Shown one piece after another: positions 34,392 to 53,605 of a stretch of DNA of 64,000 nt (positions within the stretch are counted from its first letter, which is position 1; each line of letters opens with the position of its first letter). Under the pieces are notes generated by a model that saw only the letters and a program-made list of their open reading frames with translations, was not told the DNA's origin and made no database searches. The position numbers and the translations under genes were made by a program. The stretch lies in contig CP060229.1 of NCBI GenBank assembly GCA_023898585.1, forward strand, positions 381,912 to 445,911, given 5' to 3'. This stretch comes from Candidatus Nomurabacteria bacterium (GTDB taxonomy: Bacteria; Patescibacteriota; Minisyncoccia; Phycocordibacterales; UBA918).

Positions 34392-34677
34392 GTTTCTATA
34401 ATATTTAAGGAAAAACTGAAAAAGGTGGATACACTTCTAAAGAAAGGTTTACTCATGCGGGATGAACGGTACAAAATAAATGAAAGGTTCAACCTATCTT
34501 TGCAGTAACCCGACAAATAGGGACAGGGACAATAGAATCTTAAATCACTTGGCATAATATTTTATACCCCGGCCACTAACACTGTATCCTTGATTGGAGG
34601 AGGAGACAGTTAGGCTGATGATCTCGAGTATACACTGCATGTAATAGGGAGTCCAAAGAACAATCAGAACACACTTT

Positions 34678-34754
34678 TACCTAGAGTATTGTCCCTGTCC
34701 CCATTTCCTTTACCTAGAGTATTGTCCCTGTCCCCATTTCCTGTCCCCATTTCC
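34678..34754. repeat. tandem repeat (2.4 copies of a 32/33-bp unit tacctagagtattgtccctgtccccatttcct)
   Basis: Units at 34678-34709 and 34711-34742 plus the partial gtccccatttcc. An inverted copy of the core (gggacagggacaa) lies at ~34518-34531. Confidence 0.8.
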
Positions 34755-36992: not shown

Positions 36993-37108
36993 TATTTTGT
37001 ACGAGAGGATAGTTCTAAATTCCCATTAGTGTCCATTTGGCTAGAAATGAAATGATTAGGAATTACAAAGCTATTTGGTTTCAATTACCGTTTGGGCACT
37101 TACTGTCC

Positions 37109-37177
37109 ATGGGGTGGAACCAGTTTGAGGAAATTTGTTTGGAGTGGTTGGAGGAGGCGAGGGAGGTGCTTGTATAA
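37109..37177 (+). CDS. candidate conserved small ORF (22 aa, MGWNQFEEICLEWLEEAREVLV); a paralogous copy ends at 38769
   Basis: Two copies differ mostly by synonymous or conservative codon changes, but both lack a clear SD. A cis-element explanation is equally possible. Confidence 0.25.
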   Translation: MGWNQFEEICLEWLEEAREVLV

Positions 37178-37181
37178 AAAA

Positions 37182-37212
37182 CCGCGTCCTTTGCCATAAG
37201 CTAGGGACGCGG
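37182..37212 (-). terminator. hairpin ccgcgtcc/ggacgcgg plus U6 on minus strand, directly after the 449-aa gene
   Basis: 8-bp GC stem, 15-nt loop. The minus-strand RNA is followed by UUUUUU. Confidence 0.55.
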
Positions 37213-37223
37213 CATTTACCTCA

Positions 37224-38573
37224 TTATTCGACGTTAAGGAGTTGCATCATTCGATCATAGTCGTTTTCCAGCACTTTTTCCTTGATGGGTCGGTGCGTTG
37301 GGTCAACTTCCACGCGATAACCTTGTACGAGACATGTCTCTCGACTTCCGACACCGTTGGTAAAGTCGGGTTCGCCCACCAGTGCATACGCATTTGCACT
37401 CTTGGGGAGTACAGCCTCCACTTCCTTGCGATCGTAGCGAAAGATCGGAACAGGGTAGTTCGAATCGGTATAGAATCGTACCGCTTCTCCCACCTGTTGC
37501 ATGGATTTCACCAGGAACTCTGGTTCGTACGTATCAGCCCGAGCACCTTTCTTTGGCACTTGTGTGAACCAGGTCTCATCCGGCAGTTGCATGAGCACCA
37601 TGAGGCCTCCTGGCGCTTGGTCGAGTCCGGTTGGCTCCATGAGTTCACGCCAGTGCTTTAGTAGCAACTTGCGTGCATCAGGACCTTTGCGGATTTCACC
37701 AGCATCACCCTCACGGACGCCAAACATGCGTGTTCCATCACCCCATCCATGGGGTCCAATGTCACACGACCAGGTTGGGAGACGACCATAGTCATTGCCC
37801 TGGACTTGGGAAATCGCGCCGATACTCAACAGGTGGGCAAAGGCAAAACCTTCTTCCACCTCCTGGTATACGTAGCTACAGCTTGCATCACCAGGTTGGA
37901 TGATGTATGGGTTCATCGGACCACTGCTCGGATCATACGCGTGATGCTTCTTGTAGAACTCGATTGCCAGCCTTGCGTGCTCGGTCAAATATTCAGAAGC
38001 CCGAGGACCGAGTCGTGCACGCAGCACCGGATCGACAAATGCTTCCACAGCCGAAAGGATTGAGAGGAAAGGGTACTGGTACCGACGAAGGTATGTCTCC
38101 AGTTCCACCACCTCGACCGGACCATAGTGTCCACTTTCGAGTTTGTGGAACTCGTCGATCGTGATGCGACCACCTTCTCGTCCGCGAGTCTTGTCGCTTG
38201 TTTGCCACTTGTAGGCGTCGACAACACCACGTTCGGTTGCCATCGGGCCAACGCCGTGGGCAACGAGTAGGATCTTGATGCCACCTTTGCTCATCCCTAC
38301 GTACTCGGCAGACATCGTGGTGAAGTACTGATCCCACGGGGTCGGGTTGGAAGGGTCGTAGCCATTCAGGTGTTTCGGCGGAGTTGCAAGCCGTGCATCG
38401 ACCACGTCAAGCATGGTGCCGACATGACCTTTGTCTCCAGCGAATCTGGAAGCTTGCCGGAAGGATGGCACGAAGCCATCCATGTGGAAGAAGCTCATAG
38501 CTTCACCAGTTGCGGTTTTTTCAGACATTAGTAGTCTCCTTGTTTCCGTTTTTGGATTTGAAGGAACGGACAA
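37224..38573 (-). CDS. hypothetical protein (449 aa) in GC-rich island
   Basis: Long ORF in a locally GC-rich stretch, with many spurious antisense ORFs on the + strand. No family recognised by eye. Confidence 0.6.
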   Translation of the reverse strand: MSVPSNPKTETRRLLMSEKTATGEAMSFFHMDGFVPSFRQASRFAGDKGHVGTMLDVVDARLATPPKHLNGYDPSNPTPWDQYFTTMSAEYVGMSKGGIKILLVAHGVGPMATERGVVDAYKWQTSDKTRGREGGRITIDEFHKLESGHYGPVEVVELETYLRRYQYPFLSILSAVEAFVDPVLRARLGPRASEYLTEHARLAIEFYKKHHAYDPSSGPMNPYIIQPGDASCSYVYQEVEEGFAFAHLLSIGAISQVQGNDYGRLPTWSCDIGPHGWGDGTRMFGVREGDAGEIRKGPDARKLLLKHWRELMEPTGLDQAPGGLMVLMQLPDETWFTQVPKKGARADTYEPEFLVKSMQQVGEAVRFYTDSNYPVPIFRYDRKEVEAVLPKSANAYALVGEPDFTNGVGSRETCLVQGYRVEVDPTHRPIKEKVLENDYDRMMQLLNVE

Positions 38574-38773
38574 TGTGTCCGGCGAAACAATACAATATAA
38601 AGATTTATTTGTCTACATTAAAAAAGTCCATAGTGGAACTAAAAAGTCATTATTTTATTCTGTTTCCCAGATATCTAGGACAGTAGGGCACGTACTGTCT
38701 CTCGGGTGGAACCAGTTTGAGGAATTGTGTATTGAATGGCTTGAAGAAGCGAGAGTAATTTTTGTATGAAAAA

Positions 38774-38826
38774 GCCACCCTTCCGCCGAAACGAAAGGGT
38801 CGCTTTCAGTTTCGTGGTTGGGTGGC
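38774..38826 (-). terminator. hairpin gccaccc...gggtggc plus U5 on minus strand, directly after the 116-aa gene
   Basis: 7-bp outer stem with structured loop. The minus-strand RNA is followed by UUUUU. Confidence 0.4.
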
Positions 38827-38827
38827 G

Positions 38828-39178
38828 TCAGTCAGGGCGGCGGCCTTCTTTCCAGCCACCGCATATGGACTTGTAACCAGGCGGGAACGCCTCGTTGAAC
38901 GTGTGACCACCGTGTTCTTCCAGGGCGCGTTGGACTTCCCAGCACACTTCGTCCCGCTGTTCTTCGGTCATGTTGATGAACTGCATGGTGTAGACTCGCG
39001 CCATTGCGTGAATGTCGGGCGACGTTTCGATACTGGGGTCAGTCAGGAAGTTGACGGTAGTGGTGTCGAGTCGCTCGAAGCTCCACCGTTTCTGAAATGC
39101 TGTCTGTACAGCGTGGCGAATGGCTTTCATCTGCGGTACTTCGTCCGCAGTGAAACCGGTCACATCGACAATAGGCAT
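38828..39178 (-). CDS. hypothetical protein (116 aa), possibly tautomerase-superfamily-like (Met-Pro start)
   Basis: MPIVDVTGF... with Pro at position 2, ~116 aa. GC-rich codon usage. Family assignment is weak. Confidence 0.3.
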   Translation of the reverse strand: MPIVDVTGFTADEVPQMKAIRHAVQTAFQKRWSFERLDTTTVNFLTDPSIETSPDIHAMARVYTMQFINMTEEQRDEVCWEVQRALEEHGGHTFNEAFPPGYKSICGGWKEGRRPD

Positions 39179-39189
39179 CGTGTCCTCCT

Positions 39190-39723
39190 TCAGGCCAGGA
39201 AGTTCCGGCCGTCGAGCTTGTCATTGCTGTTTTCGAATGCGTAACGACCGAGCGCCTTGAGTGAGTCAGCGGTCATCCCGGAGATGAGCTGGTCAATACA
39301 CGGTTTTTCGCCCGAGAAGCCGACCACCAGTCCGTGTCGTTTGACGCCGCCCCAGTAGGGCGTGTCGCCCGAGAACAGCAGGTGAGCGTTCGAATCGGTC
39401 TGCCCGTCATCGTTGCGTCCCTGCCAGAGCTGGAGCGCCTTGCAACGGGCGATGTCGTCGAACGGGTACTCCCAGTTATCCTTTTCACCCACGCTCTCTT
39501 CATAGAGCAAGTGCGGGTAAATCGGGTAGTTGGGCCAGTCGGGGTAGTCTTCCGATCGCACGTCGTCCATCGACGGAACGAGGATGACGAGATGACCTTG
39601 GCGACGCTTCATGGCGTCGGCGTAAGGGCCTTCTTCGGCGAATAGTGTGACCGAAAACACCTGCTTGGCCACCTGGGCGGCCAGTTGCGGGGTGAGGTAC
39701 TTGGGGGTGAGCAATTGGCTCAT
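39190..39723 (-). CDS. GlcG/DUF336-family protein
   Basis: GGVKRHGLVVGFSGEKPCIDQLISG resembles the DUF336 core motif. The likely start is the Met at 39723 (the ORF-track frame extends to 39816). Confidence 0.5.
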   Translation of the reverse strand: MSQLLTPKYLTPQLAAQVAKQVFSVTLFAEEGPYADAMKRRQGHLVILVPSMDDVRSEDYPDWPNYPIYPHLLYEESVGEKDNWEYPFDDIARCKALQLWQGRNDDGQTDSNAHLLFSGDTPYWGGVKRHGLVVGFSGEKPCIDQLISGMTADSLKALGRYAFENSNDKLDGRNFLA

Positions 39724-39879
39724 GTCGTTTCTCCACTTGGTTGCGAATTGTGATTGCCGAAATGGCGGGAACTTGTAGATCGTAGTGATCCATAAGCTGG
39801 CAAAAAAGTATAGCAAAAGTCAATTTTTGTAAATACTAACTCGACATTAGTGAAACTAGAATCTTCTGTCTGACCTGGG

Positions 39880-41634
39880 CTATGCAGAGATTTTTTCCTC
39901 TATGATGCTCTTCAAATCAGCAACGTCGTCGCTAACGTATGATTCTGGTAGGTGAGAAGCAGATTCAATTTCGACTTTTGCTTCCTCGTACTTTTTATTG
40001 TCTAAGTAGTGTCGAGCTTTTTCGTAATGCCATATTTGAGAGGCAATATTTTTATTTTTAGTTGATGCAAAGCGTTCTATGGCTTTTGTGTAGTACGCAT
40101 CTCCTTTGTTATTTTTGCCAGTTCGGAAACAAAGCAGTCCTTTTGTTGCTGAAAGTGATGGTGGCAGCTCATCGTCTTTATACTTTTTGAGGATATCCTC
40201 AGCTTTTTTAAAATGTCCGCCTAAAATGTAAGCGTGAGCTAGGTTGTTTTCAATGTAAGGCATGTCAAAACCAAGCTCTAGTGCACCTTCAAGTAGTTTT
40301 ATTGACGCTTCGTAATCCTTGTCTAGTGAAGAAAGTATAAAACTATAGTCAGGGTAAACTTCACGGATGCGAGGTTCTATTTCTAGAGATTTCTCGAAAT
40401 AAGTTTTTGCATTGTCGTATTGCTTCATCCTCCCTAGGTATGCTCCTCTTAGGTAAAAACCAAAAGCATCCTCTGGGTGAATGCGTAATATGAAGTCGGC
40501 TGTTTCTTTTAGTTTATCTAAGTCGTCTCTGTCAACGGCTGATCTCCCTATGTTGTAAGATGATTTTAGGTGATCAATTTTGATATTAAGATTGCGCTTG
40601 CCGGAGATGTGTTTTTTGAATAAAGAGGCAGCTTTTTCGAAACAAGCGTCACCTTGAGTGTTCAGACCAACTGATTTATAGCAAACTCCAAGATTGTTGT
40701 ATAAAAGATCGTTGTTTTTCTCTTCTTGTATCTTCTTTTGGTACCAGGGTATCGCTTCTTCGAAGTTTCTTAGCTCCATTAGTAGCCAACCAATCTTATG
40801 CTCCCAAACGTGGTCGAGTATCAACTGACTATGTTTTGCCTTTACGAGTGTTTCTAAGGCTTCAGCGTATTTTTTTCCGTTCACGTACAGATAGGCCAGG
40901 TTTTGATAACTGTGTATATATCTAGGATCTATTTCAATAACACTCTTGAAAAGACCTTCCGCATCTCCAGGGTTGCCAGACCGTAGATGGGCCACCCCAA
41001 GGTTATTTATCGCGTGTATATAACGGTTATTTATAGATCTTGATCTTTCAAAATACGTTACTGAACCTTCTATGTCTTTCTTAAGGTTTAGGAGTATAAA
41101 CCCATGAGTGTTGATAACTTCGTAGTCTGCTGGATCTTTTTGTTCAGCTTCATTTAAAACGCTGATGGCTTCCTCTACATCACGATTTTTTTCATCTATT
41201 AAAGCTTTAAAAATGGCATACTTATGCAAAATATCTGGGCGACGATTGGTAACTTCTAGTACCTTCCTGAAAAATAGGTTTGCTTGGTCGATGTCCTTGT
41301 GTGATATGCATGCAAAGAGTATTTTTTCGTATGCCGGTAAATGGTCAGGTTTTAAATCTATCGCCATTAGGAAGTAGGTGATAGCACGTTTGTAATTACC
41401 TTTCATTAGGTACAGATCGCCAACCTGCATTAGAGTCTGTGGTGCCTCGCGTTCACTAAGTCTTTTCTTGGCGAACCTCATTTGCTCATTTATGAACTTA
41501 TGTTTAAACTTGTGTCCGAAAGAGTTGACGGGAGAAGCGTCTGTAGAGGAAATAGGAGTATGAGTTGGTCGTGATTTTGCAGCACCAATAACCGGTTCGA
41601 TGTAATCGTTGGTATTTTGGGTCTGAGTAATCAT
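39880..41634 (-). CDS. TPR-repeat protein (584 aa)
   Basis: Multiple 34-residue TPR-like repeats (W/LG/Y...A...F...A...P patterns). 4-bp overlap with the upstream kinase gene. Confidence 0.7.
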   Translation of the reverse strand: MITQTQNTNDYIEPVIGAAKSRPTHTPISSTDASPVNSFGHKFKHKFINEQMRFAKKRLSEREAPQTLMQVGDLYLMKGNYKRAITYFLMAIDLKPDHLPAYEKILFACISHKDIDQANLFFRKVLEVTNRRPDILHKYAIFKALIDEKNRDVEEAISVLNEAEQKDPADYEVINTHGFILLNLKKDIEGSVTYFERSRSINNRYIHAINNLGVAHLRSGNPGDAEGLFKSVIEIDPRYIHSYQNLAYLYVNGKKYAEALETLVKAKHSQLILDHVWEHKIGWLLMELRNFEEAIPWYQKKIQEEKNNDLLYNNLGVCYKSVGLNTQGDACFEKAASLFKKHISGKRNLNIKIDHLKSSYNIGRSAVDRDDLDKLKETADFILRIHPEDAFGFYLRGAYLGRMKQYDNAKTYFEKSLEIEPRIREVYPDYSFILSSLDKDYEASIKLLEGALELGFDMPYIENNLAHAYILGGHFKKAEDILKKYKDDELPPSLSATKGLLCFRTGKNNKGDAYYTKAIERFASTKNKNIASQIWHYEKARHYLDNKKYEEAKVEIESASHLPESYVSDDVADLKSIIEEKISA

Positions 41635-42608
41635 ATGTTGAGTTTGTCTAAATCTGCTTCCAGTTCCTCGATGCTATTGTATCTTCTGGAATGGTCGATA
41701 TCACAGAGCTTTTCAATGATTTTGTTAATCTCCTGGGTTAGTTGGTAATCTACCAGAGATACGTGTAAGTTTGAGTAGTCGAGATTTCTTCTTGTTTCAA
41801 GCCACTTGCTATAAAACTGTTCTCTTTCGGTATAGGTTTTTCCGTTCGTGCTAAACGAGTTTTGTTGCATGTAGGTACCAATATCTCCCACAAGTTGTGA
41901 GTAATGTATTATTGGTGTTCCGTTAAATAGGAAAGATAATAAAATACCGAGAGCATAGTGATCGGTCTTTTTAGAAAGACCGATATTAGTACCGTCTGTT
42001 ATCTCAAAGAAGAGTTCGGGAGGACGTACGTATCTATGACCTACGCAAGGACGATCAAGATAATCAAGAGGCTCAAGGTTGTGATCTTTTGCTCTTCCAA
42101 AATCACACAACTTAACCTGTTGTTCGTCACCGTCAAATACTAAAACATTGTTCCACCAGAGATCTCTGTGTACTACGTCCAGTTGGTGGGCATGCTTTAC
42201 ACCAGTACATATCTTTCTGAATGTAGAGATAAGTTCAGAAGGTGTCTGATTATAGTTTTCTTTTATATGGGCATCAAGATTGCCTTGAGCAAGCTCCATC
42301 AGATAGTAGAAAAATGGACTCTCTTCCTCGTTAACACTCAAAGGAAGTATTATTTGTTCGCAATGCAAAGGTGTGTGTAGTCTGTGGAGGATGGTATTTT
42401 CTTGTTTGAAGCGGTCAATCTCTTCTTTGGGAGCGCCGTCTCTGCAGACTTTTAGAGCAATCGGCGAACCGTATTCTTCATTTTTTACCTCGTAGACAAT
42501 ACCAAAATTGCCGCCACCCAGCTCTCTAATTACAGTATTTTCTCGAATCTTTTGCCCTGTCGTTAGCATGGTAGTCGTTACTATAGGCAACACCTTTTCC
42601 GTTGTCAA
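41631..42608 (-). CDS. Ser/Thr protein kinase (Hanks-type)
   Basis: G-loop LGGGNFGIVY, VAIK-like IALKV, catalytic loop HRDLWWNNVLV, DFG (DFGRAKD). Confidence 0.8.
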   Translation of the reverse strand: MTTEKVLPIVTTTMLTTGQKIRENTVIRELGGGNFGIVYEVKNEEYGSPIALKVCRDGAPKEEIDRFKQENTILHRLHTPLHCEQIILPLSVNEEESPFFYYLMELAQGNLDAHIKENYNQTPSELISTFRKICTGVKHAHQLDVVHRDLWWNNVLVFDGDEQQVKLCDFGRAKDHNLEPLDYLDRPCVGHRYVRPPELFFEITDGTNIGLSKKTDHYALGILLSFLFNGTPIIHYSQLVGDIGTYMQQNSFSTNGKTYTEREQFYSKWLETRRNLDYSNLHVSLVDYQLTQEINKIIEKLCDIDHSRRYNSIEELEADLDKLNI

Positions 42609-42662
42609 AGATGAGTATCGAGACTAGGTTACTATCGTTCGCTCATTTTACTGTCACACCTG

Positions 42663-43034
42663 TCACTTTTCAAAGATGGATGCTACTAGTCGATCAATTC
42701 TTTCTTGATCGATCTGTTTTGCGGGCAGTTCGATTGTTTGCCTAGGAATGTCCCAGCCGTAGTTACACCGTAAATTAAACATTGCCCCAGTAACAGCCCC
42801 GCCTCTAAATAGGTGTTCTTCAGCGAATGTCTCACAGCGCTGTTTTGCTGCCTCTATCGTGTCAAAAAATTCCTCTTTTCGTGAGTAATTCAACAATGTT
42901 TGTCGTGTGACTCCGAGAAAAAGAGATAGTCCGGATATTGTATACGGTCGATCTTGTTGATCGCATAGTTGAAAATAGCCGTCCACAGCGGTCTGTAGAG
43001 CTATTTGGTTGTTGAATTTAAGTGGCCTTGACAC
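42663..43034 (-). CDS. phage terminase small subunit-like protein (HTH DNA-packaging protein)
   Basis: Pattern YTISGLSLFLGVTRQTLLNY...EFFDTIEAAKQRCE...FNLRCNYGW resembles TerS-family N-terminal domains. Confidence 0.5.
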   Translation of the reverse strand: MSRPLKFNNQIALQTAVDGYFQLCDQQDRPYTISGLSLFLGVTRQTLLNYSRKEEFFDTIEAAKQRCETFAEEHLFRGGAVTGAMFNLRCNYGWDIPRQTIELPAKQIDQERIDRLVASIFEK

Positions 43035-43049
43035 CTATGTATTTTACCA

Positions 43050-43529
43050 TCAAATACAGGCTGGGCTGGAGTAATTTATTGTTTTGCAGACATACTCTAT
43101 GCCTGCCCTAAAAGCGTATTCGGTTGTTGAGTCCATAAAATCTTCGTTCAAGTCTAGAGCTTTTTCTAGCGCCTCGCTCTGAGCCGCCTGTTTGCCATGT
43201 ATGAATCCTGCGTTATAGCGTGCTTCTCCAAACTCAGATACTGACATGCTGCCTATGTTTATATCAGTACTAGGTTGATTTTCTTCTTCCGTTTCGTACA
43301 AGGACCAAGCGTCTTCATAACCATCTTCGTAACCCACCTCTATACCTGCATCGTAACCAGACGCATATCGTTCCTTCATCTGCGCTGAAATAAATAGCCA
43401 GACTACAATTAGTGCGATTATCGTCAATATGGATATGATTATCTTTTTCATGGTTACGTCTGTATACAAAAAGCCCACTGCTAAAAGGTAGGATGTGAGT
43501 CCACATGCCCAGTTTCCCAGACATGACAC
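43050..43529 (-). CDS. hypothetical membrane-anchored protein
   Basis: The likely start is the internal Met (MKKIIISILTIIALIVVWLF). Acidic ectodomain. Confidence 0.4.
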   Translation of the reverse strand: MSCLGNWACGLTSYLLAVGFLYTDVTMKKIIISILTIIALIVVWLFISAQMKERYASGYDAGIEVGYEDGYEDAWSLYETEEENQPSTDINIGSMSVSEFGEARYNAGFIHGKQAAQSEALEKALDLNEDFMDSTTEYAFRAGIEYVCKTINYSSPACI

Positions 43530-43673
43530 AGAACGTGACCCCGTTAACAGCGGGTTCTTTATCGTTCTGTGATTAACTTATTCGCACCATGCCGCGCCTC
43601 ACGGCAGCGGGTTAGGTGACTATATTGTCTTTTAATAGTATCAGAAATAAGGGTATGATACGAGGAAATGTAA

Positions 43674-44417
43674 ATGTATATGGATGCAAAAAGGGTAAAA
43701 ACAGTATGGAGATCAGTTGTTAAAAGGATTCCTGCCGAATATGTGACTGAAACTCGGGAAAGATTGAATATTCCACCAAAGGGGTTTTTGACCTTTAAGG
43801 ACCAAGAAAAGTGGTATCAAAACGCATTAAAAGAAGTTACTGCAATGAGTCGTGGTGCCTACAAAGGGAAAAGATTAACTGAGCGGCAACGAATCGTCTT
43901 AAACAAAGCATTGGAAAAGACAGATTATGGGATTTTGCAGCAAGCGATTTCTACCATCGTAGAAAAATTTCCAGTACTAAAAGGATATGAAGATGCCGTA
44001 CGGGAAGGTTTGTTGGGCTTAATGAACGAAAAAAGTATCAATTCGGGCGATTACACTGGTTGTGAATTTGCGTATGTGACCAAAGATTCTGGAGATACAG
44101 ATTTATCTGAAGGTTTGTACATCAGGGTTTCCAGTCACACAACCAAGCAAGACATTGATGATTTTTTAACAAAGAAAAAAACTGCTTTTCAAAAGCTGAA
44201 AAAGCTTCTATATCCAGATGAGCCAATCCGTTATCAGGTTTCACCAGCAGCAGAGAGGAAAGAGATGACGAGAATTTTGCGCGACCATTCATTAGTGGAA
44301 CTTAATAAGTTGTGTAAAAAAGAGTGCGAGGAAAGGGGTGATTATGATCCCATATTGCCGACTCGAAAGGATATGGCTATTGAAAGACTTCTTAAATTTT
44401 GGGGATACAAGAAGTGA
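43674..44417 (+). CDS. hypothetical protein (247 aa), divergently transcribed
   Basis: ORF with plausible start. No domain recognised. Confidence 0.45.
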   Translation: MYMDAKRVKTVWRSVVKRIPAEYVTETRERLNIPPKGFLTFKDQEKWYQNALKEVTAMSRGAYKGKRLTERQRIVLNKALEKTDYGILQQAISTIVEKFPVLKGYEDAVREGLLGLMNEKSINSGDYTGCEFAYVTKDSGDTDLSEGLYIRVSSHTTKQDIDDFLTKKKTAFQKLKKLLYPDEPIRYQVSPAAERKEMTRILRDHSLVELNKLCKKECEERGDYDPILPTRKDMAIERLLKFWGYKK

Positions 44418-44504
44418 TCTAGTGCAGTTAAATGACCGTTTGTTAGTAAAAACTCAACTAGGGTTGGGTTTTTACTAACTCCTAATTCTTTTACGGGGAA
44501 TACT

Positions 44505-44744
44505 TTGGTCACTATGACTAATGTATATAAAACATCAGATTTAAATGAGGCGGTCGTACTTTTATGTTATGACCACAAACTAGAGTACATTGATAAAACA
44601 GAGCGGCGGGCACAATTTTGCTTTACGGAGCAATCTGATACCGCTGAAGTAATTAAGAATTATAGGCTACGTGAAATTCAGATAGAGCCACATTCCTTTT
44701 ACCAACACCAACGCGATCTAAAGGATCGTTTGTATAACGGCTAG
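44505..44744 (+). CDS. hypothetical small protein (79 aa)
   Basis: ORF immediately upstream of the primase gene. Confidence 0.4.
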   Translation: MVTMTNVYKTSDLNEAVVLLCYDHKLEYIDKTERRAQFCFTEQSDTAEVIKNYRLREIQIEPHSFYQHQRDLKDRLYNG

Positions 44745-44748
44745 GCTT

Positions 44749-47007
44749 ATGTCAGGTGTAAGTAAATTGAACAACGACAGTAGTCATTTGAATAAGTTAA
44801 AGGAAGCTGCGCTACAGTACGTAAAAGACGGCCACCCCATTGTACCTATGGGCCTCAATGGTGATACAGGGGACTATAAAAGGCCACTAGTAAGGTGGCG
44901 AGATGTAGACGGTCCGGCTCGGACAGAAAAAGCTGTAGAGAGTTTATTTTCCAAGTTTGGCAAACGAATTTTCGGAATCGCAACAATTGTTGAGCGGCAT
45001 ATCCTGGTCGATTTTGATACAGAGGATTCACACAAGTTATTTAGGCTACAACCAGCCCCAACCATTAAAACTGGCAAAGGTAGACACATGTGGTATGCCA
45101 CAACTTCTGTAGTCAAACAGAATGGGCCACTTGACTTGTCTGAACATGAAAAGAGGGACGGTAAAAAATATCAGGTAGAGATTTACACAGAAAAGCGGCT
45201 TGAAATTCTGCCACCCTCTCTACATCACTCTGGTGTGTTGTACGAATGGGAGCTGGACTATACAGATTTCTTAGATTTGTCACCTTTACCTGAAGATTTG
45301 GTCCAATTGTGTGGAATTAAAAAGGAGAAAGTTGGCCAGAAAAAAAGCGACATATTTCAAATCATCTATGAGGGTGAGCGACACAGCAAATTAAAAGAAG
45401 CTTGTTTTTACTTCTTTAATAAGCATAAAGGGAATGGAAAAAAGATAACCAAATCAGTTCTGGCCTGGAACATCGAATATTGTAATCCTCCAATAGATGA
45501 AGGTGAGGTTGGGAACATGGTCGATTGGACTATCAAAAACTTTGATGCACCTGACGGGAAGAAAGACAAAGAACCGAAACAAAGTCAGGCAGTAATTGAG
45601 TATATTGAAGAAAATAAAGCAATTACGCTATTCCACGACCAAGACAAGATTGGTTTTGCTCGCCTCAATTCACAAAAGGGAGTGAATATTCCAATTCACA
45701 GTCAAGAGTTTACTGAGTTTTTATCCCTACTCGCGTATCAATCTGACAAAAGTGTTTTAACGGATTATGTTTGTAAAGAGATTCAGTCAGTTTTACATGC
45801 CAAAGCATTGTATGAGTCTTCCCAGCACGCTCTACAACACCGAGTGTATCAGTCTGGTGAGTGTGAATTTTACTATGACCTCTGCAACGATGCTGGAGAA
45901 GCAGTAAAGATAACAAAAGACGGGTGGACTATTGAATCGGGAGAGAAAATACAGTTTCTTTTTAAGCGCGGTGCTGCAACAGAACAGCCGAGACCAGTTA
46001 AGGGTGGAAACCTAAGACAGTTTCTCGATTTTGTGAATCTCAAAGACGAAGATGAACAGATGTTGTTTTTGTGCACGCTTCCCGTGCGAATGATTCGAGA
46101 TATCGACCAGCCGATCGTTTACATCTACGGCCCAGCTGGAAGTGCAAAAACCACACTGCTTAAACTGACTAAAGACCTGCTTGACCCGTCTCAAGGTGGA
46201 ATTTCAATGCCGGTAAAAAAGCTTGAACACATCACGCCGCTTTTAAATCAGACGTGGGTGTTTGCTAATGACAACATATCTCATATTGGTGACGAGTTGT
46301 CTGACTTCTTTTGTGTAATGGCCACTGGAGCTGAAAGTGCTCGTCGCACCTTGTATAAAGACTCAGAAGTGACAGTGCATCGTGTTAAGAACCCTGCATA
46401 CATGACGGGCATCAACATTGAAGCTAGTAATAGTGACTCACTTAGCAGGTTGTTGATCTTTAAGACTGAAGCGTTGGGTAAGGGGAATCTCAAGAATAAA
46501 AATGATCTTTTTAGAAAATATCAGCAGATGAAACCACAGCTGCTGGGCTCTATTTTTGACACATTAGTAGCAGCTTCGAATGTAAAGCAGGACTTACCAC
46601 AACAGACCGAGTTCCGTATGACTGAATATGCGCTATGGGGCGCTGCATGTGCCGAGGTGCTCGGGTATGGGGCTGAAAATTTTGAAAAGGCTTTACAGAG
46701 AGCAATGAGAGCTCGGGCTTATGACGCCATCCAGTCTTCTAGCGCAGGTCGAGCGCTTTTGAAACACCTCGAAAGCAACCTTTCTTTTGAAGGGACAATG
46801 ACTCAGCTTCTAAAGACACTAAAGGATCTGTATTTTGAGGATGATTTTCATGAAAGATGGGGTGAGACTGTAGCAAACAATCCTGAATCACTAAGCAAGA
46901 AACTGCGTGAACTTGAAAATAGTCTATCAGAGATAGGCATAACCATAGATTTTAAACGAACAGCCACAGAACGATTGATTGTCATAAGTCGAGTAGAGGG
47001 GTTTTAG
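44749..47007 (+). CDS. primase-helicase replication protein (Prim-Pol N-terminal domain plus D5/P4-type P-loop NTPase)
   Basis: Prim-Pol DxD (HILVDFDTED). Walker A GPAGSAKTT in the C-terminal half. 752 aa. Confidence 0.7.
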   Translation: MSGVSKLNNDSSHLNKLKEAALQYVKDGHPIVPMGLNGDTGDYKRPLVRWRDVDGPARTEKAVESLFSKFGKRIFGIATIVERHILVDFDTEDSHKLFRLQPAPTIKTGKGRHMWYATTSVVKQNGPLDLSEHEKRDGKKYQVEIYTEKRLEILPPSLHHSGVLYEWELDYTDFLDLSPLPEDLVQLCGIKKEKVGQKKSDIFQIIYEGERHSKLKEACFYFFNKHKGNGKKITKSVLAWNIEYCNPPIDEGEVGNMVDWTIKNFDAPDGKKDKEPKQSQAVIEYIEENKAITLFHDQDKIGFARLNSQKGVNIPIHSQEFTEFLSLLAYQSDKSVLTDYVCKEIQSVLHAKALYESSQHALQHRVYQSGECEFYYDLCNDAGEAVKITKDGWTIESGEKIQFLFKRGAATEQPRPVKGGNLRQFLDFVNLKDEDEQMLFLCTLPVRMIRDIDQPIVYIYGPAGSAKTTLLKLTKDLLDPSQGGISMPVKKLEHITPLLNQTWVFANDNISHIGDELSDFFCVMATGAESARRTLYKDSEVTVHRVKNPAYMTGINIEASNSDSLSRLLIFKTEALGKGNLKNKNDLFRKYQQMKPQLLGSIFDTLVAASNVKQDLPQQTEFRMTEYALWGAACAEVLGYGAENFEKALQRAMRARAYDAIQSSSAGRALLKHLESNLSFEGTMTQLLKTLKDLYFEDDFHERWGETVANNPESLSKKLRELENSLSEIGITIDFKRTATERLIVISRVEGF

Positions 47008-47019
47008 CATTTTGGCTTA

Positions 47020-47181
47020 TGACCAGCCTCGAAACATTTAAAGAGATTCTTATAGAATGCGGTGTTTCCGTGCCAGAAGAGCAGATCGAAGTGTTTCGTG
47101 ATTTGATTGATGCGCAAGCCGATTTGATTTTAGACTCATGGCTCAAAAGTAAACATGACGGTTGTGACAGTGTAAAATAAA
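47020..47181 (+). CDS. small hypothetical ORF (53 aa) between primase and recombinase
   Basis: Unlisted ORF MTSLETFKEILIECGVSVPEEQIEVFRDLIDAQADLILDSWLKSKHDGCDSVK. Fills the intergenic gap. Confidence 0.3.
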
Positions 47182-47184
47182 CGT

Positions 47185-48933
47185 ATGCAGAAAGAACGGC
47201 CCAGGACATGTCTAGCTAGTGCACGAATCAGTAGCCAACAACAAATGGCTGGTGAGAGTCTTGATGATCAGGTGCGAGTTCTCAAAACTACCGCTGAACA
47301 TAAAGGACTTAAGATACTACCTGACGGTGAGGTAGCCGTTGAGATATTCACTGGTACAAAACGTCGTCCTGTGTACGAACAGCACATTCAGTACATCAAA
47401 GACAATCCGGGCAAGGTTGGTTACTATCTAATTCGATACATTGATCGCTTTACTCGTGGTGGTGCCTCTGTCTATCACGACATGAAAAAAGAACTTTCCG
47501 ATTTGGGAGTGATGCTCATTGATACAAACGGAATCATCCAAGAATCACGGAACATGCCGGAATTGGCTGAGATGGGTTTTGAATATGAGTGGAGTGTCGA
47601 ATCACCAAGTGACATGACTGAGGTGATGATGGCAACAACAGCCAAACAGGAACGCGACACAATTCTAAAAAGAACAATTCCTAAGCAGATTGCTTATACT
47701 CAAAAAGGATTTCAGATAGGTCGCCCTGACGATGGAATGATGAACTATCGTACTCAAGTGGGGACACAGATACGATTTGTGCAGGTCCCCGATCCAGAGC
47801 GCGCTCACTTCATAAGAAAAATATTTGAGCTACGGGCAGAGAATAAACACTCTGATCAAGAGATACTTCATATTGTGAATGAAGACATGGGGTTTCGTAC
47901 TAAAAAATTCCATCGCTGGAATAAAACCCACACAGAGATTATCGGTGAAGGAGGTGGCCACAAGCTTCATATCAAGCAGCTACAGCGCATTTATCAGCGT
48001 TTAGCGTATGCAGGTGTACTTTGCGAGAAATGGACGCACCACAAGCCAATTAAGGCGCAATGGGACGGCTTAGTATCAATTGAGCTATGGAACAAAGCAA
48101 ACCGTGGCAAGATTTTCATTAAGGAGTACGACAATGACCTGTTGGAGATTCTGTACGACTATAAAACCGAGAAGCCCGTCTATCAACGACTTCGATACAA
48201 CCCAGAGTATCCTTTCAAGTGTGTAAGTTGTCCGCAGTGCAACAAGCCACTTAAAGGCAGTGCACCACGCGGGCGCGGCGGAACATACCCACGCTATCAC
48301 TGTGAACGTGGCCACACTTCATTTACGGTCAGTCGGCAACAAATGAATCAGACTGTCGAAGCATTTTTGGACAGTGTCGATTATGACGATGATTATCTGA
48401 AAGTTTTAGAAGAAGTGCTGGTCCGTAAACTACGACAGCGACAGAAAGATATTGTGCAGGAATCAGAGAAGCTAAACGAACGAGTCACTTTATTAAAGAG
48501 CCAACAGAAGCAGGTTCTAGGTACTTTAATCTCAACTGAGAGTCCGACGGTCAAAGTCATGCTTGAGAAAGAATTGGAGACCATTGTTGCTGACATCAAA
48601 AAGGCTGAATCAATTCGTTTCTCTGTCGATCTCACTGAAGGCAATATTACTGAGTTGGTGAGCTACGCACGAAAGATAGTGGAATCACCGAAAAAAGCCT
48701 TGATAGATAAAGACAATCCACTCCGACAGAAGCAGTTATTCAAGCTTTTCTTCGAGGACCTACCAACCTATACAGAATTGGATAGTGGAACCGCTAAAAA
48801 ACGCTTTCTTTTCAATAGGAAATGTATTGTCGAGACCCCTGAAAACAGGGTGTCTAGACAGAAGGGGCGACTACTGGGAATCGAACCCAGATTTCCGGTA
48901 CCACAAACCGGCGTAATAGCCGTTATACAATAG
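47185..48933 (+). CDS. large serine recombinase (resolvase catalytic domain, recombinase domain, zinc ribbon, coiled coil)
   Basis: Catalytic ARISSQQQ (cf. YARVS..Q) and IDRFTRG. Zn-ribbon CVSCPQC...HCERGH. The last ~23 codons overlap tRNA-His on the opposite strand. Confidence 0.75.
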   Translation: MQKERPRTCLASARISSQQQMAGESLDDQVRVLKTTAEHKGLKILPDGEVAVEIFTGTKRRPVYEQHIQYIKDNPGKVGYYLIRYIDRFTRGGASVYHDMKKELSDLGVMLIDTNGIIQESRNMPELAEMGFEYEWSVESPSDMTEVMMATTAKQERDTILKRTIPKQIAYTQKGFQIGRPDDGMMNYRTQVGTQIRFVQVPDPERAHFIRKIFELRAENKHSDQEILHIVNEDMGFRTKKFHRWNKTHTEIIGEGGGHKLHIKQLQRIYQRLAYAGVLCEKWTHHKPIKAQWDGLVSIELWNKANRGKIFIKEYDNDLLEILYDYKTEKPVYQRLRYNPEYPFKCVSCPQCNKPLKGSAPRGRGGTYPRYHCERGHTSFTVSRQQMNQTVEAFLDSVDYDDDYLKVLEEVLVRKLRQRQKDIVQESEKLNERVTLLKSQQKQVLGTLISTESPTVKVMLEKELETIVADIKKAESIRFSVDLTEGNITELVSYARKIVESPKKALIDKDNPLRQKQLFKLFFEDLPTYTELDSGTAKKRFLFNRKCIVETPENRVSRQKGRLLGIEPRFPVPQTGVIAVIQ

Positions 48934-48938
48934 TCGCC
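48866..48938 (-). tRNA. tRNA-His (anticodon GTG) with encoded G-1
   Basis: Manual fold. Extra 5' G pairs with discriminator C. Anticodon loop tTGTGgt. T arm GGGTTCGATTCCC. Confidence 0.75.
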
Positions 48939-49417
48939 ATAAATCGTTCTTTTTCTTTCGAGTAATGATGAACGAGATGGTGGCAATTGTGGCACAACCA
49001 AGCCAAATTTTCAATGCTATTGTTGGAGTGGTTCTCATCAATGTGGTGAACTGCTAATACTCTAGTATCTCCAGAGTTGCATAGTTTACATTTTTTAGGA
49101 GTTTTACCTCGTGAAAGTAAGCTCCGATACGAATGATTACCCGACTTCCAATTAGGGTGCTTTTCTTGAGAGAATTCCCGATTCCTCCACTTTGTTTGGC
49201 AAGACTTGCCACAAAAGAATTTTCCACTTTTTGATCCTTTGAGAGCTTTGGGTGATTTGTATATTTCTTTGTTGCAATAAGAACAGTTTACATATTTACC
49301 AGTTCGAGATGCTTCATGTTGACAGGAGGAAGAACAGTACTTGCCCCAACCTCTCTTTAACCAAGAGGGCTTAGCGTAAAAATCAACCTTACACTTTTCG
49401 CATTGTTTTATAGGCAT
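48923..49417 (-). CDS. HNH endonuclease with N-terminal zinc-finger repeats
   Basis: C-terminal LAVHHIDENHSNNSIENLAWLCHNCH HNH motif. Multiple CxxC pairs. The 3' end overlaps the tRNA-His 5' end by 16 nt. Confidence 0.65.
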   Translation of the reverse strand: MPIKQCEKCKVDFYAKPSWLKRGWGKYCSSSCQHEASRTGKYVNCSYCNKEIYKSPKALKGSKSGKFFCGKSCQTKWRNREFSQEKHPNWKSGNHSYRSLLSRGKTPKKCKLCNSGDTRVLAVHHIDENHSNNSIENLAWLCHNCHHLVHHYSKEKERFMATIV

Positions 49418-50544: not shown

Positions 50545-51858
50545 ATGAAAATCGAGAGTATTCGCAAACGTGATGGATCGATCCAGCCCTTTGACATTAA
50601 AAAGATTGTTAATGCCATCACCAAGGCCCTCAATGAGACAAGGGAAGGTGGTCAGAAAGAGGCGGAAGATGTCGCGGAATTGGCCTATGAAAAAGTTGTC
50701 TCCATGTGTGTTGAGGCAACGGAAGCCGACCCGGAAGATCCGATGGCGCAGAAGTGTATAGATGGCAGTCCTTCAGTGGAAGAAATTCAAGACTTGGTAG
50801 AGCAAGCCTTGATGGAAAAGGACTACTACAATACAGCCAAGGCCTACATCATTTATCGTAATGCGCGTAAGAAAATGCGTGAGCGAGATATCTTTGCAAA
50901 GCGTCAAAATCTCAAACCATACGAATATCCAGAACTGTACGAATATACCGATTCAATTCGCCATTCATATTGGGTACATACTGAGTTTAATTACACTTCC
51001 GACGTACAAGATTTTCACGTTAATGTCACGGAAGCGGAAAGAACCGCTATCAAGCACTCGATGTTGGCGATTGCTCAAATTGAAGTGGCGGTAAAGACAT
51101 TCTGGGGAGACATCTATAAAAAAATGCCCAAGCCTGAGATCGGAGCGGTAGGGGCCACTTTTGCCGAAAGTGAAGTGCGCCACACTGACGCTTATTCACA
51201 TTTGTTGGAGATACTGGGGCTCAATGATGAGTTTACCGATATTAAAGATATCCCGGTCATTCAAAAACGAATGGATTATCTCGAAAAGGTCATTGATTTG
51301 TCACGCACGGAGGAAGATAAGCAGTATGCTCACTCAATGCTACTTTTTTCGCTTTTCATCGAACATGTTTCTTTGTTTTCACAATTCCTGATTATGATGT
51401 CGTTTAATAAGCATAAAAACTTGTTCAAAGGCATCAGCAACGCGGTTGAAGCCACTTCGAAGGAGGAACAAATTCACGGCATGTTTGGCATTGATGTCAT
51501 CAACATCATAAAAGAAGAGCACCCTGAGTGGTTTGACGATGAATGCAAAGAACTGATTGTGAAGTCCTGCGAAGAAGCCTACGAAGCCGAGTGTAAGATC
51601 GTGGACTGGATTTTTGAAGATGGGGAATTGGACTTCTTACCGGCTACTAACGTGAAAGAGTTTATAAAAAATCGCTTGAATAACTCACTCGCTTCGATCG
51701 GTCTGCCTCGAATATTTGAAGTTAGTGAAGCCTTGCTTGAAGAAACCGACTGGTTTGACAACGAAGTGATAGCGACAAAGCACGTAGACTTCTTCAACAA
51801 GCGATCAATAAACTACAACAAACGGTCGTCAAGTGTCACCAGTGACGATTTGTTTTAA
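50545..51858 (+). CDS. nrdB: class I ribonucleotide reductase beta subunit with N-terminal ATP-cone
   Basis: N-terminal ATP-cone (IRKRDGSIQPFDIKKIVNAITKA). Ferritin-like di-iron motifs EVRHTDAYS and EEQIHGMF. Confidence 0.8.
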   Translation: MKIESIRKRDGSIQPFDIKKIVNAITKALNETREGGQKEAEDVAELAYEKVVSMCVEATEADPEDPMAQKCIDGSPSVEEIQDLVEQALMEKDYYNTAKAYIIYRNARKKMRERDIFAKRQNLKPYEYPELYEYTDSIRHSYWVHTEFNYTSDVQDFHVNVTEAERTAIKHSMLAIAQIEVAVKTFWGDIYKKMPKPEIGAVGATFAESEVRHTDAYSHLLEILGLNDEFTDIKDIPVIQKRMDYLEKVIDLSRTEEDKQYAHSMLLFSLFIEHVSLFSQFLIMMSFNKHKNLFKGISNAVEATSKEEQIHGMFGIDVINIIKEEHPEWFDDECKELIVKSCEEAYEAECKIVDWIFEDGELDFLPATNVKEFIKNRLNNSLASIGLPRIFEVSEALLEETDWFDNEVIATKHVDFFNKRSINYNKRSSSVTSDDLF

Positions 51859-51910
51859 ACTATGGGCAAGAGGCAATCATTTTTATAAATTAATCACGAA
51901 TAAAATACTT

Positions 51911-53605
51911 ATGGAACCCTGGTACTGGTTGAACGAAAATAGTCGCGCTTTTCTAGCAAGAGGCTATCTGTCCGAGGGGCAGACCGCCGAAGAACGCATT
52001 CGAGTGATAGCCGACAGAGCCGAACAAATCTTAAACAAAAAAGGTTTTTCGGATAAATTCTACGAGTACATGTCGAAGGGTTGGATCTCGCTCGCTTCAC
52101 CGGTGTGGTCTAATTTCGGTTTGAAAAGAGGTCTGCCTATAAGTTGCTTCGGTTCCTATCTCGACGACAATATGGGAAGCATACTCTTCACCAATGCGGA
52201 AGTGGGGATGATGAGCAAGTACGGAGGCGGTTGCTCCGGCTACTTTGGGGCATTGCGACCGCGCGGAGCGGAAATAGCGGGCGACAATGGTCATTCTTCC
52301 GGTTCCGTGCATTTTATGCAATTGTTCGAAACTTTGATAAATGTTGTTAGCCAGGGTTCGGTGCGACGCGGACATCTGTCCCCCTACTTACCGGCTGAGC
52401 ATCCTGACATCATGGAATTCCTTGATATCGGCACCGAAGGAAATCCGATTCAAATGTTGACACACGGGGTGACAGTAGGGGACGACTGGATGGAAAGCAT
52501 GATAGATGGCGATGAGGCAAAGCGAAAAATTTGGGCGCGAATAATCCAAAGACGGGGCGAAATGGGCTATCCGTATATTATGTTCAGTGATACGGCCAAC
52601 AAGAATACGGTTGATGTCTACAAAGAGAAAAAATTGAAGATCTACGCCAGCAACATGTGTAGCGAGATCATGTTGCCAAGTAAGGAGGATTGGTCGTTTG
52701 TTTGTTGTCTTTCCTCGATCAACTTGCTTCATTACGGTGCTTGGAAAGATACCGATTTGGTTGAGACGATGATTGCTTTTCTCGACTCGGTGATGGAAGA
52801 TTTTATTTTGAAATTGGAAGATTTGCGTGACTCGGGCGACGATGAAAAGAAGAGGGCTTTTGAATTCATGCAAAGAGCGTATAGTTTTGCTAAAGCGAAC
52901 CGCGCTCTCGGGCTCGGTGTTCTTGGCTACCACTCTCTTCTACAATCCAAAAAATTACCGTTTGAAAGTGAGGAGGCGGCCAAGCTAAACGAAGAAGTGT
53001 TCAAACATATTAGGCTCAAAGCTGACATCTCAACTCAGCAGTTGGCGAAAGATTTTGGCGAACCGGAAGTTTTGAAAGGTTACGGCCGTCGTAACACTAC
53101 TCTAATGGCTATTGCCCCGACTACCTCTTCAGCTTTTATTCTCGGTCAGGTCTCGCAGGGAATCGAGCCGATTTGGTCAAATTGCTACATTAAAGACGTG
53201 GCTAAAATGAAGGTGACGATAAAGAATCCGACTTTGAAAATTTTGCTCAAGGAGAAGAAAAAAGACACCAAAGCGACGTGGGACAGCATCCGTGACAATG
53301 ACGGTTCGGTTCAACATCTTGATTTTCTCAGTGATGAAGAAAAAGCGATCTTCCGCACTTTCGGTGAAATCGACCAAGCTAAAATCATCGAACAAGCGGG
53401 AATCAGACAGAAATATATCGATCAAGGCCAGTCACTTAATGTGATGGTACCACCAAACACTCCCGCCAAAGAGATCAATCAACTTTATATCAAAGCCTGG
53501 AAGGAGGGAATCAAGTCGCTTTATTACCAACATAGCCAAAACGCAGCTCAACAAATGGCTCGTAAAAAATTGGCTGAAAAGGACGCCAAGGAAAACGGAA
53601 AGTAG
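51911..53605 (+). CDS. nrdA: class I ribonucleotide reductase alpha subunit lacking ATP-cone
   Basis: Catalytic NMCSEIMLP (cf. NLCxEI) and the C-terminal tail. The start is taken at Met 51911 after the nrdB stop. Confidence 0.8.
   Translation: MEPWYWLNENSRAFLARGYLSEGQTAEERIRVIADRAEQILNKKGFSDKFYEYMSKGWISLASPVWSNFGLKRGLPISCFGSYLDDNMGSILFTNAEVGMMSKYGGGCSGYFGALRPRGAEIAGDNGHSSGSVHFMQLFETLINVVSQGSVRRGHLSPYLPAEHPDIMEFLDIGTEGNPIQMLTHGVTVGDDWMESMIDGDEAKRKIWARIIQRRGEMGYPYIMFSDTANKNTVDVYKEKKLKIYASNMCSEIMLPSKEDWSFVCCLSSINLLHYGAWKDTDLVETMIAFLDSVMEDFILKLEDLRDSGDDEKKRAFEFMQRAYSFAKANRALGLGVLGYHSLLQSKKLPFESEEAAKLNEEVFKHIRLKADISTQQLAKDFGEPEVLKGYGRRNTTLMAIAPTTSSAFILGQVSQGIEPIWSNCYIKDVAKMKVTIKNPTLKILLKEKKKDTKATWDSIRDNDGSVQHLDFLSDEEKAIFRTFGEIDQAKIIEQAGIRQKYIDQGQSLNVMVPPNTPAKEINQLYIKAWKEGIKSLYYQHSQNAAQQMARKKLAEKDAKENGK

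Follow-up and report, generated by a model that had tools for sequence, protein, structure and literature searches.

In this study, we describe a recombinase gene (int) whose 3' end is read through a tRNA-His gene on the opposite strand, in a 64,000-nucleotide stretch of a Candidatus Nomurabacteria bacterium contig (assembly GCA_023898585.1, contig CP060229.1, positions 381,912 to 445,911; hereafter the window, whose own numbering is used throughout). Comparison with homologous loci makes it very likely that this overlap is the right attachment site (attR) of an element that was inserted at the 3' tip of the host tRNA-His by its own large serine recombinase (LSR). The integrative element, of about 10-12 kb, very probably occupies 37094-48868, with attR at its right. 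The integration junction is real and of another kind than first proposed. An earlier reading of the letters alone (the sequence-only reading) saw an integration signature at the tRNA, which the attR junction, the tails of homologues and an orphan tail fragment bear out; it also took the int 3' end to carry a tRNA-derived att core, whereas the antisense codons are host DNA joined to the gene by integration and the identity between the junctions is limited to 4 bp. It seems that the system works as a standard serine integrase, the unusual points being the tRNA target, the use of the T-loop as the outer attB motif, and an attP that lies within the int open reading frame (ORF).

The recombinase and its junction with tRNA-His

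The host tRNA-His(GTG) gene (48864-48938, minus strand) is intact and forms the B' half of attR. It was predicted by ARAGORN at 48864-48937 on the minus strand and by Infernal with the Rfam tRNA model RF00005 (58 bits, gathering score 29; model positions 1-71 at 48866-48937), and the sequence read directly places an encoded G-1 at 48938, facing C73. ViennaRNA by itself did not recover the cloverleaf of this tRNA, and the assignment comes from ARAGORN and Infernal. The proposal of a tRNA-His that encodes its own G-1 is therefore borne out, and the coordinates first given were correct to within 1-2 nt. The recombinase ORF (47185-48933, plus strand, 582 aa) is a single open frame whose stop lies 5 nt inside the tRNA-His 5' end; its codons 561-582 and stop are tRNA-His nt 74 to 5 in antisense, so that the 21 residues R562-582 are read from the tRNA. 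On the other side, an HNH ORF (48923-49417, minus strand, 164 aa) has 16 nt in common with tRNA-His on the same strand (G-1 to nt 15, TAA included). Comparison of homologues confirmed that both overlaps are real and not due to chance, because 54 of 74 recombinase homologues and 117 of 120 HNH homologues show the like.

The enzyme, here in its integrated (attR) form, is a large serine recombinase and not a tyrosine integrase, as its Pfam domains, conserved motifs and the fold of a homologue indicate. Residues 12-167 match Resolvase PF00239 (7.8e-08, 33 bits, cut-off 23.3) and residues 204-307 match Recombinase PF07508 (23.9 bits, cut-off 21.1). The catalytic motif R14-I15-S16 is present, with R14 and S16 conserved at 90% or more in 28 homologues, and the zinc-ribbon cysteines C349, C352 and C373 are invariant among the homologues. 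An AlphaFold2 (AF2) model of the homologue P0028 (mean predicted local distance difference test, pLDDT, 77.6) has long coiled-coil helices at 402-476, and its best Foldseek matches are the full-length SPbeta, Bxb1 and PhiC31 integrases (probability 1.0, 560-630 columns). A phmmer search of the recombinase against the PDB gave no match, and a sequence profile reached catalytic domains only. The ORFs scanned at 32114-53605 contained no Phage_integrase domain. In every feature of the LSR family that can be tested by computation, the recombinase system agrees with that family, and membership of it predicts attP x attB recombination with a 2-bp staggered cut. Since LSR att sites share few base pairs, duplication of the tRNA on integration is not required.

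The tails of homologues tell the host part of the protein from the native part. The 120 best of 327 homologues, mostly from Patescibacteria (Kaiserbacteria, Nomurabacteria, Parcubacteria), were compared, and 80 genomic loci, with 74 complete recombinase ORFs, were taken from GTDB genomes. Those 120 proteins align collinearly as far as residue 560 or so, beyond which two classes of tail can be told apart. The first reads GIEPRF... or VGIEPTLEVLETPVLPLY, which are tRNA T arms in antisense (GGA ATC GAA CC); the second has the form G(F/L)(S/G/E)WN(T/Q)(I/F)E..(V/I)L.W..(V/A)F. In 54 of the 74 complete ORFs the stop lies inside or just beyond an opposite-strand tRNA (Glu 32, Lys 7, His 5, Trp 4, Arg 4, Gly 1, Tyr 1). 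Since the ORFs end in such varied antisense tRNAs, the tail follows whichever tRNA adjoins; a C-terminal tail common to the homologues and independent of any tRNA, which would have told against integration, was not seen. Nor is the native C-terminus about 23 aa shorter, as had been suggested; it is a different tail of 26 aa, coded at the other end of the element (37094-37177).

This second tail came to light through D1, the longest direct repeat in 30-52 kb of the window (37094-37181 and 38686-38773), both copies of which translate on the int strand to stop-closed class-2 tails, GHLLSMGWNQFEEICLEWLEEAREVLV and GHVLSLGWNQFEELCIEWLEEARVIFV. A tail hidden Markov model (HMM) run on all stop-to-stop fragments of the loci, within an available flank of at most 10 kb, gave the orphan fragment at 37094 a score of 28.3 bits. 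In that flank, an orphan tail was found upstream of int, invariably on the int strand, at 29 tRNA-fused loci; no minus-strand match above 15 bits occurred in the loci. The element sizes that the orphan tails imply are 4.6-11.1 kb.

The two junctions can be aligned as ...AGACAGAAG GGGC GACTACTG GGAATCGAACC... for attR and ...ACCGTTT GGGC ACTTACTG TCCAT GGGGTGGAACC... for attL. At attR, the core GGGC (48865-48868, plus strand; tRNA nt 74-71) is flanked on its left by the P half-site of the element (48835-48864, plus strand, outer limit approximate), which lies within the int coding sequence (...TCTAGACAGAAG), and on its right by the B' half-site (48869-48888, plus strand), that is, the acceptor 3' strand and the T arm in antisense, GACTACTG GGAATCGAACC, where TCGAAC at 48881-48886 is tRNA-His nt 58-53 (the T54-C56 region). 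The attL site (site A, 37094-37177, plus strand) consists of the core GGGC at 37094-37097, the P' arm ACTTACTG-TCCAT-GGGGTGGAACC with TGGAAC at 37115-37120, and the orphan tail, which is in the int reading phase. To its left, at 37070-37093 (plus strand), lies the B half-site, formed by the native sequence that once followed tRNA-His and is now displaced (GGTTTCAATTACCGTTT); it has a loose dyad symmetry with the tRNA arm. The window thus has the order attL, E1 (1.5 kb), an attP-like site, E2 (about 10.2 kb), attR.

Exact identity of attL and attR is confined to the 4 bp GGGC, which comprise the first base past the discriminator, the discriminator and the last two acceptor pairs. As GGGC is the sole identical block, the 2-bp crossover is placed within it. 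At other tRNAs the same four positions are shared and the sequence differs (GTGA at Glu, GTCC or GTGC at Lys). The crossover position, which had been thought unclear, is located at tRNA nt 74-71, or codons G561/R562; within it, nt 72/71 may be favoured by a dyad, the GACAG of the P arm mirroring the CTGTC of the P' arm.

Beyond the core, the arm of the element is tRNA-like for about 8 bp, has 5 extra bp, and then reads TGGAAC against the TCGAAC of the tRNA. Among 21 registers tested on the right-hand half-sites (B' and P') only, +5 was the best in 29 of 31 attL/attR pairs, which cover five isotypes. In serine integrases generally, the outer (zinc-ribbon) motif of attP lies 5 bp further from the centre than that of attB (Rutherford et al., 2013; PMC3783163), and the tRNA motif lies at bp 10-19 from the inferred centre (nt 72/71), as in the attB model of the same work. 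At the level of sequence, the 5-bp offset matches this published geometry. We propose that the inner right half-site (the tRNA acceptor 3' strand or the imitation of it in the element) would be read by the recombinase domain, and the T-loop TCGAAC, or the TGGAAC of the element 5 bp further out, by the zinc-ribbon domain. A T-loop read in this way would explain how one scaffold shifts between tRNAs. TGGAAC also forms the codons of the invariant Trp-Asn of the tail, so that these two codons would be under a double constraint.

A tRNA island of the tyrosine-integrase style, in which the element brings a copy of the tRNA 3' end, the crossover falls in the tRNA body and the int 3' end holds the core, is the commonest cause of an int gene adjoining a tRNA, and Mx8 and SSV provide known cases of an int gene running through attP (PMC4383910). 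Here it is very improbable. The protein has the Resolvase and Recombinase domains and the LSR fold, and the tRNA repeat in the window is limited to the 4-bp core and an imperfect imitation with a 5-bp insertion. Direct-repeat and k-mer searches of the window for a second tRNA copy gave chance 11-14-mers only, which ruled out this model and pointed to D1 instead. Moreover, the antisense-tRNA codons are missing from the homologues that keep the tail within their int ORF (the attP state, described below).

On the host side, the surroundings of the junction mark the tRNA as a resident gene. Relatives whose int is 62-85% identical have the same order of tRNA-His, MscL and ribonucleotide reductase (RNR) next to unrelated cargo, and this synteny is also found at loci without any recombinase. 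On another view, the element itself would include both tRNA-His and the HNH gene, in the manner of tRNAs carried by phages, and the overlap would be internal to it. This view draws on the frequent presence of tRNAs and HNH genes in phages and satellites and on the small-terminase homologue and primase of the element; it can hardly be right, as the tRNA-His, MscL and RNR order is kept beside unrelated elements and where the recombinase is lacking, other family members adjoin tRNAs in host tRNA clusters (for example, at locus L012), and four close relatives with this int/tRNA junction lack the HNH gene. In the relatives, the left flanks of attL, read in the tRNA sense, contain terminator hairpins a few bases after GCCC, and at a recombinase-free locus (L124) a terminator directly follows tRNA-His, like these displaced flanks. 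The attL flanks would thus be tRNA terminators, and integration would have displaced the terminator by one element length. In the window, promoter and terminator scans round the tRNA and att sites gave matches no more frequent than in shuffled sequence.

The joined arm may also alter the tRNA gene itself. At many tRNA-Glu attR sites (for example, L010 at 11658 and L017 at 7001) the P arm gives TGG (antisense CCA) after the discriminator, where the displaced native flank has TTT, so that integration gives the tRNA-Glu gene an encoded CCA that it apparently lacked.

A proposed attachment site inside the recombinase gene

The simplest reading of the comparative evidence, which comes from relatives and not from the excised form of this element, is that attP lies within the int ORF. 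Four homologues (L002 and L005, 62% identical to the window protein, and L128 and L129) have the tail within the int ORF and read straight across the corresponding core; the contigs of L128 and L129 have plasmid-like genes and no tRNA. Together with the orphan in-phase tail at attL, these read-through ORFs point to an attP within the gene. In the AF2 model of P0028, a disordered stretch at 547-569 (pLDDT 37-40) is followed by a tail helix at 568-599 (pLDDT about 80), and the disordered stretch coincides with the attP core and P' arm. It seems that the DNA site is placed where protein constraint is lowest.

A degenerate P'-arm pattern search of metagenomes gave 30 additional sites, almost all of the attL type, with unrelated left flanks that often have stop codons just upstream, which argues that the orphan tails are not independent small genes. 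Over the 14 codons past the half-site, 35 distinct His-group tails had a mean entropy of 1.34 at third, 0.89 at first and 0.63 at second codon positions, and there were synonymous switches such as TTG/CTA for Leu and AGG/CGA for Arg. These comparisons show that the tail, though orphaned in the integrated state, has the substitution pattern of translated sequence.

In the mechanism that we propose, attP would fall within the part of the ORF that codes for a disordered linker between the zinc-ribbon domain and a C-terminal helix. In the circular element the ORF would span attP and yield a 587-aa enzyme ending in ...RQKG-HLLSMGWNQFEEICLEWLEEAREVLV. Exchange between attP and attB inside GGGC would leave tRNA nt -1 to 73 unchanged, replace the trailer and terminator, and leave a tail-coding fragment at attL, 11.7 kb off. 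The int gene would become fused to the antisense tRNA, the prophage protein of 582 aa having 21 incidental residues after G561 instead of the 26 native ones of the circle. The predicted empty site would read ...ACCGTTTGGGCGACTACTGG..., with the empty attB as ...CAATTACCGTTTGGGCGACTACTGGGAATCG..., and the circle junction would read ...AGACAGAAGGGGCAC[T/G]TACTGTC...; a circle of E1 and E2 would be joined as ...TCTAGACAGAAGGGGCACTTACTGTCCATGG... and one of E2 alone as ...TCTAGACAGAAGGGGCACGTACTGTCTCTCGGG....

Comparison across the loci shows the anatomy, the core, the 5-bp offset, the coding-type constraint on the tail and the recurrence at seven tRNA isotypes. Continued excision of the element is something we infer from them, with the prophage-form enzyme as the presumed agent, probably with a conserved 53-aa protein encoded upstream of int. 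Some observations weigh against this account. The empty attB and the circular junction of this species were not recovered: an exact 32-mer from the tRNA arm, searched for in the JGI metagenomes to detect an empty site, gave 0 matches, and the attP-state contigs L002 and L128-L131 showed no terminal overlap that would indicate circularity. As neither an empty site nor a circle was recovered, we infer mobility from comparative anatomy alone. The P arm in the int coding sequence has no mirror TGGAAC, only the GACAG/CTGTC dyad, which makes for a rather asymmetric site. The window contains two sites with a tail (37094 and 38686), either of which may partner attR in excision. For 30 of the tails, the first 29 nt were fixed by the search pattern and their invariance is uninformative. 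Four distant homologues on large non-Patescibacteria contigs (L014, L016, L040, L048) keep the tail in the ORF and have no tRNA close by, which makes tail exchange a trait of the tRNA-targeting clade and not of the whole family. Any effect of the tail on activity is a conjecture from sequence and model.

Alternatively, the element could be a dead remnant, in which the int frame merely continued into the tRNA after integration, the exchange of tails is without biological meaning, and the Trp-Asn pair is conserved as a DNA site only. We consider this unlikely. The missing excised form and empty site would fit it, as would site B (the internal attP-like site) and E1, which look like decayed copies, and the coincidence of TGGAAC with the presumed zinc-ribbon motif. 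Against it, int keeps a complete reading frame both in the window and in 54 tRNA-fused relatives, some with as little as about 35% identity, and the 14 tail codons past the half-site have coding-type substitutions despite the orphan state. The cargo differs between close relatives, which suggests recent turnover. Assemblies also break exactly at the junction: a Logan contig of another sample starts exactly at 48864, which is compatible with a polymorphic junction. The window sequence is 99.98% identical to GCA_020428745.1.

The exchanged helix might serve as a built-in sensor of the integration state, the helix form integrating and the antisense-tailed form excising with its 53-aa partner, with retargeting through the reading of the T-loop as a corollary. 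We offer this as a tentative suggestion that has a rather low chance of being right. Were it true, directionality would be partly hard-wired by the position of attP in the gene; and the clade would swap its tRNA target via inner half-site contacts alone, which would make these naturally retargetable serine integrases.

Relation to known integrases

The use of tRNA genes by serine integrases was termed previously unreported, and in need of proof, in a survey of 2020 (PMC7192596). According to Islander, tyrosine integrases alone are known to target tRNA genes (PMC4383910), and a large LSR survey does not mention tRNA (Durrant et al.; PMC10083194). A serine-integrase precedent for an attP inside the int ORF was not found in the literature, whose searchable part is incomplete. 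The recombinase described here has the domain order of the LSRs PhiC31, Bxb1, Listeria A118/LI and SPbeta SprA (catalytic, recombinase, and zinc ribbon with an inserted coiled coil), and it shares with them short att sites that have a minimal identical core and an attP outer motif 5 bp further out (PMC3783163), as well as a small separate protein as the likely directionality factor. It is unlike the known LSRs in that it targets the very 3' end of a tRNA gene, with the universal T-loop as the outer motif of attB, and in that attP lies within the int ORF, so that integration swaps the C-terminal helix. An island of the Islander tyrosine type was rejected as a counterpart, on account of the serine recombinase, the want of a displaced tRNA fragment, and the 4-bp core with an imitation that has a 5-bp insertion.

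The target of phage Mx8 is also a tRNA locus, and the attB of the phiRSM group of phages is the 3' end of a tRNA-Ser gene. In Mx8, the tyrosine integrase IntP/IntX has its attP in the int 3' end (Tojo et al., 1996, as cited in PMC4383910), and, as would be the case here, integration alters the C-terminal residues, so that the prophage and free-phage isoforms differ. In contrast to the element described here, Mx8 belongs to the tyrosine family, with a different chemistry, a long core identity and arm-type sites, and there is no relation in sequence or fold. The 'suicidal' integrases of the SSV type from archaeal viruses and plasmids (PMC7253208) are alike in having the site within the integrase ORF and a tRNA as target; they are of the tyrosine family, and integration divides their gene into two parts that are both inactive. 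In the element described here, about 96% of the protein is left intact, including every recognised domain. The phiRSM-group recombinases are small serine recombinases that act as site-specific integrases (Askora et al., 2011, cited in PMC7192596), which is the point of likeness. They are resolvase-sized, without recombinase, zinc-ribbon or coiled-coil domains, belong to filamentous phages, and have an int that is not fused to the target.

The insertion of large DNA segments relies mainly on serine integrases as tools, and the control of their direction is an active structural question. The present findings suggest that a whole clade, mostly from Patescibacteria, uses tRNA 3' ends precisely and repeatedly, tRNA genes having previously been ascribed to tyrosine integrases only. 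The loci provide dozens of natural attP/attB pairs for one protein scaffold, which may be of use in studies of specificity, and an attP within the gene would give two natural isoforms, one helix apart, that match the two directions of the reaction. They also define a class of integrative elements of 4.6-11 kb in Patescibacteria. To our knowledge, the mobile elements of these bacteria have been little characterised so far. For annotation, it follows that the last 10-25 codons of such int genes are host tRNA, and that a short 'non-coding' fragment at the far end is coding sequence. In IMG/VR we found 2 relatives only, one of which has a tail from a sequence not called a tRNA by ARAGORN; elements of this recombinase clade are rarely classed as viral.

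The HNH gene, the cargo and neighbouring sequence

The HNH endonuclease gene (48923-49417, minus strand) encodes a 164-aa protein that matches PF13392 (25.5 bits, cut-off 24.8) and phrog_1271 'HNH endonuclease' (9.9e-18). Its last five codons and stop (M-A-T-I-V and TAA) are tRNA-His G-1 to nt 15. The family has 1207 matches, almost all of 164 aa, and in 117 of the 120 best homologues the protein ends in (F/L/Y)-M-A-(A/T)-(I/M)-V and a stop or a close variant of it. This end peptide is the ATG GCG RCT ATN GTA TAA of tRNA-His and it tracks the local tRNA, being for example AAMV with the tRNA of the L001 type. At five further HNH loci compared at the DNA level (L123-L127), a same-strand overlap of 15-16 nt was present in all five, with no recombinase. 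Among the close relatives, only this strain has the gene, which is absent from L001, L003, L004 and L006. Two contigs break within the HNH gene, and an identical protein is annotated in NCBI as Candidatus Kaiserbacteria bacterium.

Judged from these homologues, the HNH/tRNA overlap is independent of the integrase and a separate trait conserved in the HNH family; the sequence-only reading had the overlap itself right. We take it to be an independent and probably mobile endonuclease gene whose place in the tRNA-His leader is fixed. Homing by the HNH protein, with cleavage of the gene-less allele, would be putative. Since the frame ends within tRNA-His, the HNH message would lose its last five codons and stop if RNase P processed a co-transcript. 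The gene resembles free-standing HNH homing endonuclease genes of phages in encoding a small HNH protein with zinc-binding repeats, in its sporadic presence among close relatives, and in a fixed position beside a highly conserved target-like sequence. It is unlike them in being chromosomal, in belonging to Patescibacteria, and in having a frame that ends in the tRNA-His gene. A description of an HNH/tRNA-His fusion was not found in the searchable literature. At L024, a 51-aa mini-HNH ORF (4926-5081, minus strand) with the nuclease motif only ends 10 nt upstream of a tRNA-His that adjoins a tRNA-Glu used by a recombinase of the family; it is either degraded or a minimal relative of the 164-aa family.

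Within the element, E1 (37178-38631, 51% GC) has no int gene and a single ORF of 449 aa to which no function was assigned (37224-38573, minus strand), a homologue of which adjoins an attL in L101. Site B, the internal attP-like site (38632-38769, plus strand), consists of a P-like arm, SGTKKSLFYSVSQISRTV, a core GGGC at 38686-38689, a P' arm and a copy of the tail, GHVLSLGWNQFEELCIEWLEEARVIFV, closed by a stop; the P-like arm includes TCTAGGACAGTA, against TCTAGACAGAA in the int P arm. Its left side has weak signs of a possible int 3'-end remnant (SGTKKSLFYSV...). It is this int-like left flank that makes site B attP-like, and the non-int left flank of site A that makes it attL. The junction 'aggacagta|GGGCAC' of site B occurs also in L001, L111 and L121. 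Tandem arrays are found in L001 (2633, 4629) and L005 (5003, 11681) as well, where attL, an internal attP-like site and attR bound two elements; one of the two arrayed elements is without a complete int, which resembles the accretion of cis-mobilisable elements. It is possible that such arrays arose by homologous recombination between related elements or by integration of a dimer.

The cargo of E2 (38770-47184) comprises two ORFs of unknown function, a TPR protein, a Ser/Thr kinase, a small-terminase homologue of the P22 gp3 type (42663-43034, minus strand), two more ORFs of unknown function, and a PrimPol-type primase with a P-loop region (44749-47007). Directly upstream of int lies an acidic ORF of 53 aa (47019-47180, plus strand), which had no Pfam or PHROG match. 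Its family, defined by jackhmmer, has 67 matches across 83 loci. Almost every match shares the strand of int and lies no more than about 200 nt from the start of that gene, and this ORF and int are the only genes common to the elements of the relatives, the remaining cargo being different. The 53-aa protein is a candidate recombination directionality factor or other partner of the enzyme. With its primase, small-terminase homologue and Ser/Thr kinase and no capsid or tail genes, the cargo at 38770-47007 recalls phage satellites such as phage-inducible chromosomal islands (PICIs), and E2 could be a satellite of a Patescibacteria phage. The GC content is 51-53% at 37000-40000, compared with about 42% elsewhere; this region spans E1 and the left part of E2, and its ORFs of 449, 160 and 208 aa have no family match.

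Outside the element, the left flank contains a methyltransferase operon. For the methyltransferase, no database record of the exact product was found and no alternative left-flank context was obtained. The intergenic sequence upstream of this operon (34676-34754) has a 33-nt unit (TTTACCTAGAGTATTGTCCCTGTCCCCATTTCC) in two perfect tandem copies and a partial third. Beyond tRNA-His, the RNR genes (50545-51858 and 51833-53605) overlap by 26 nt, and the ATP-cone is on the small (R2) subunit, the large subunit being without one; in L001, the ATP-cone is on the large subunit instead.

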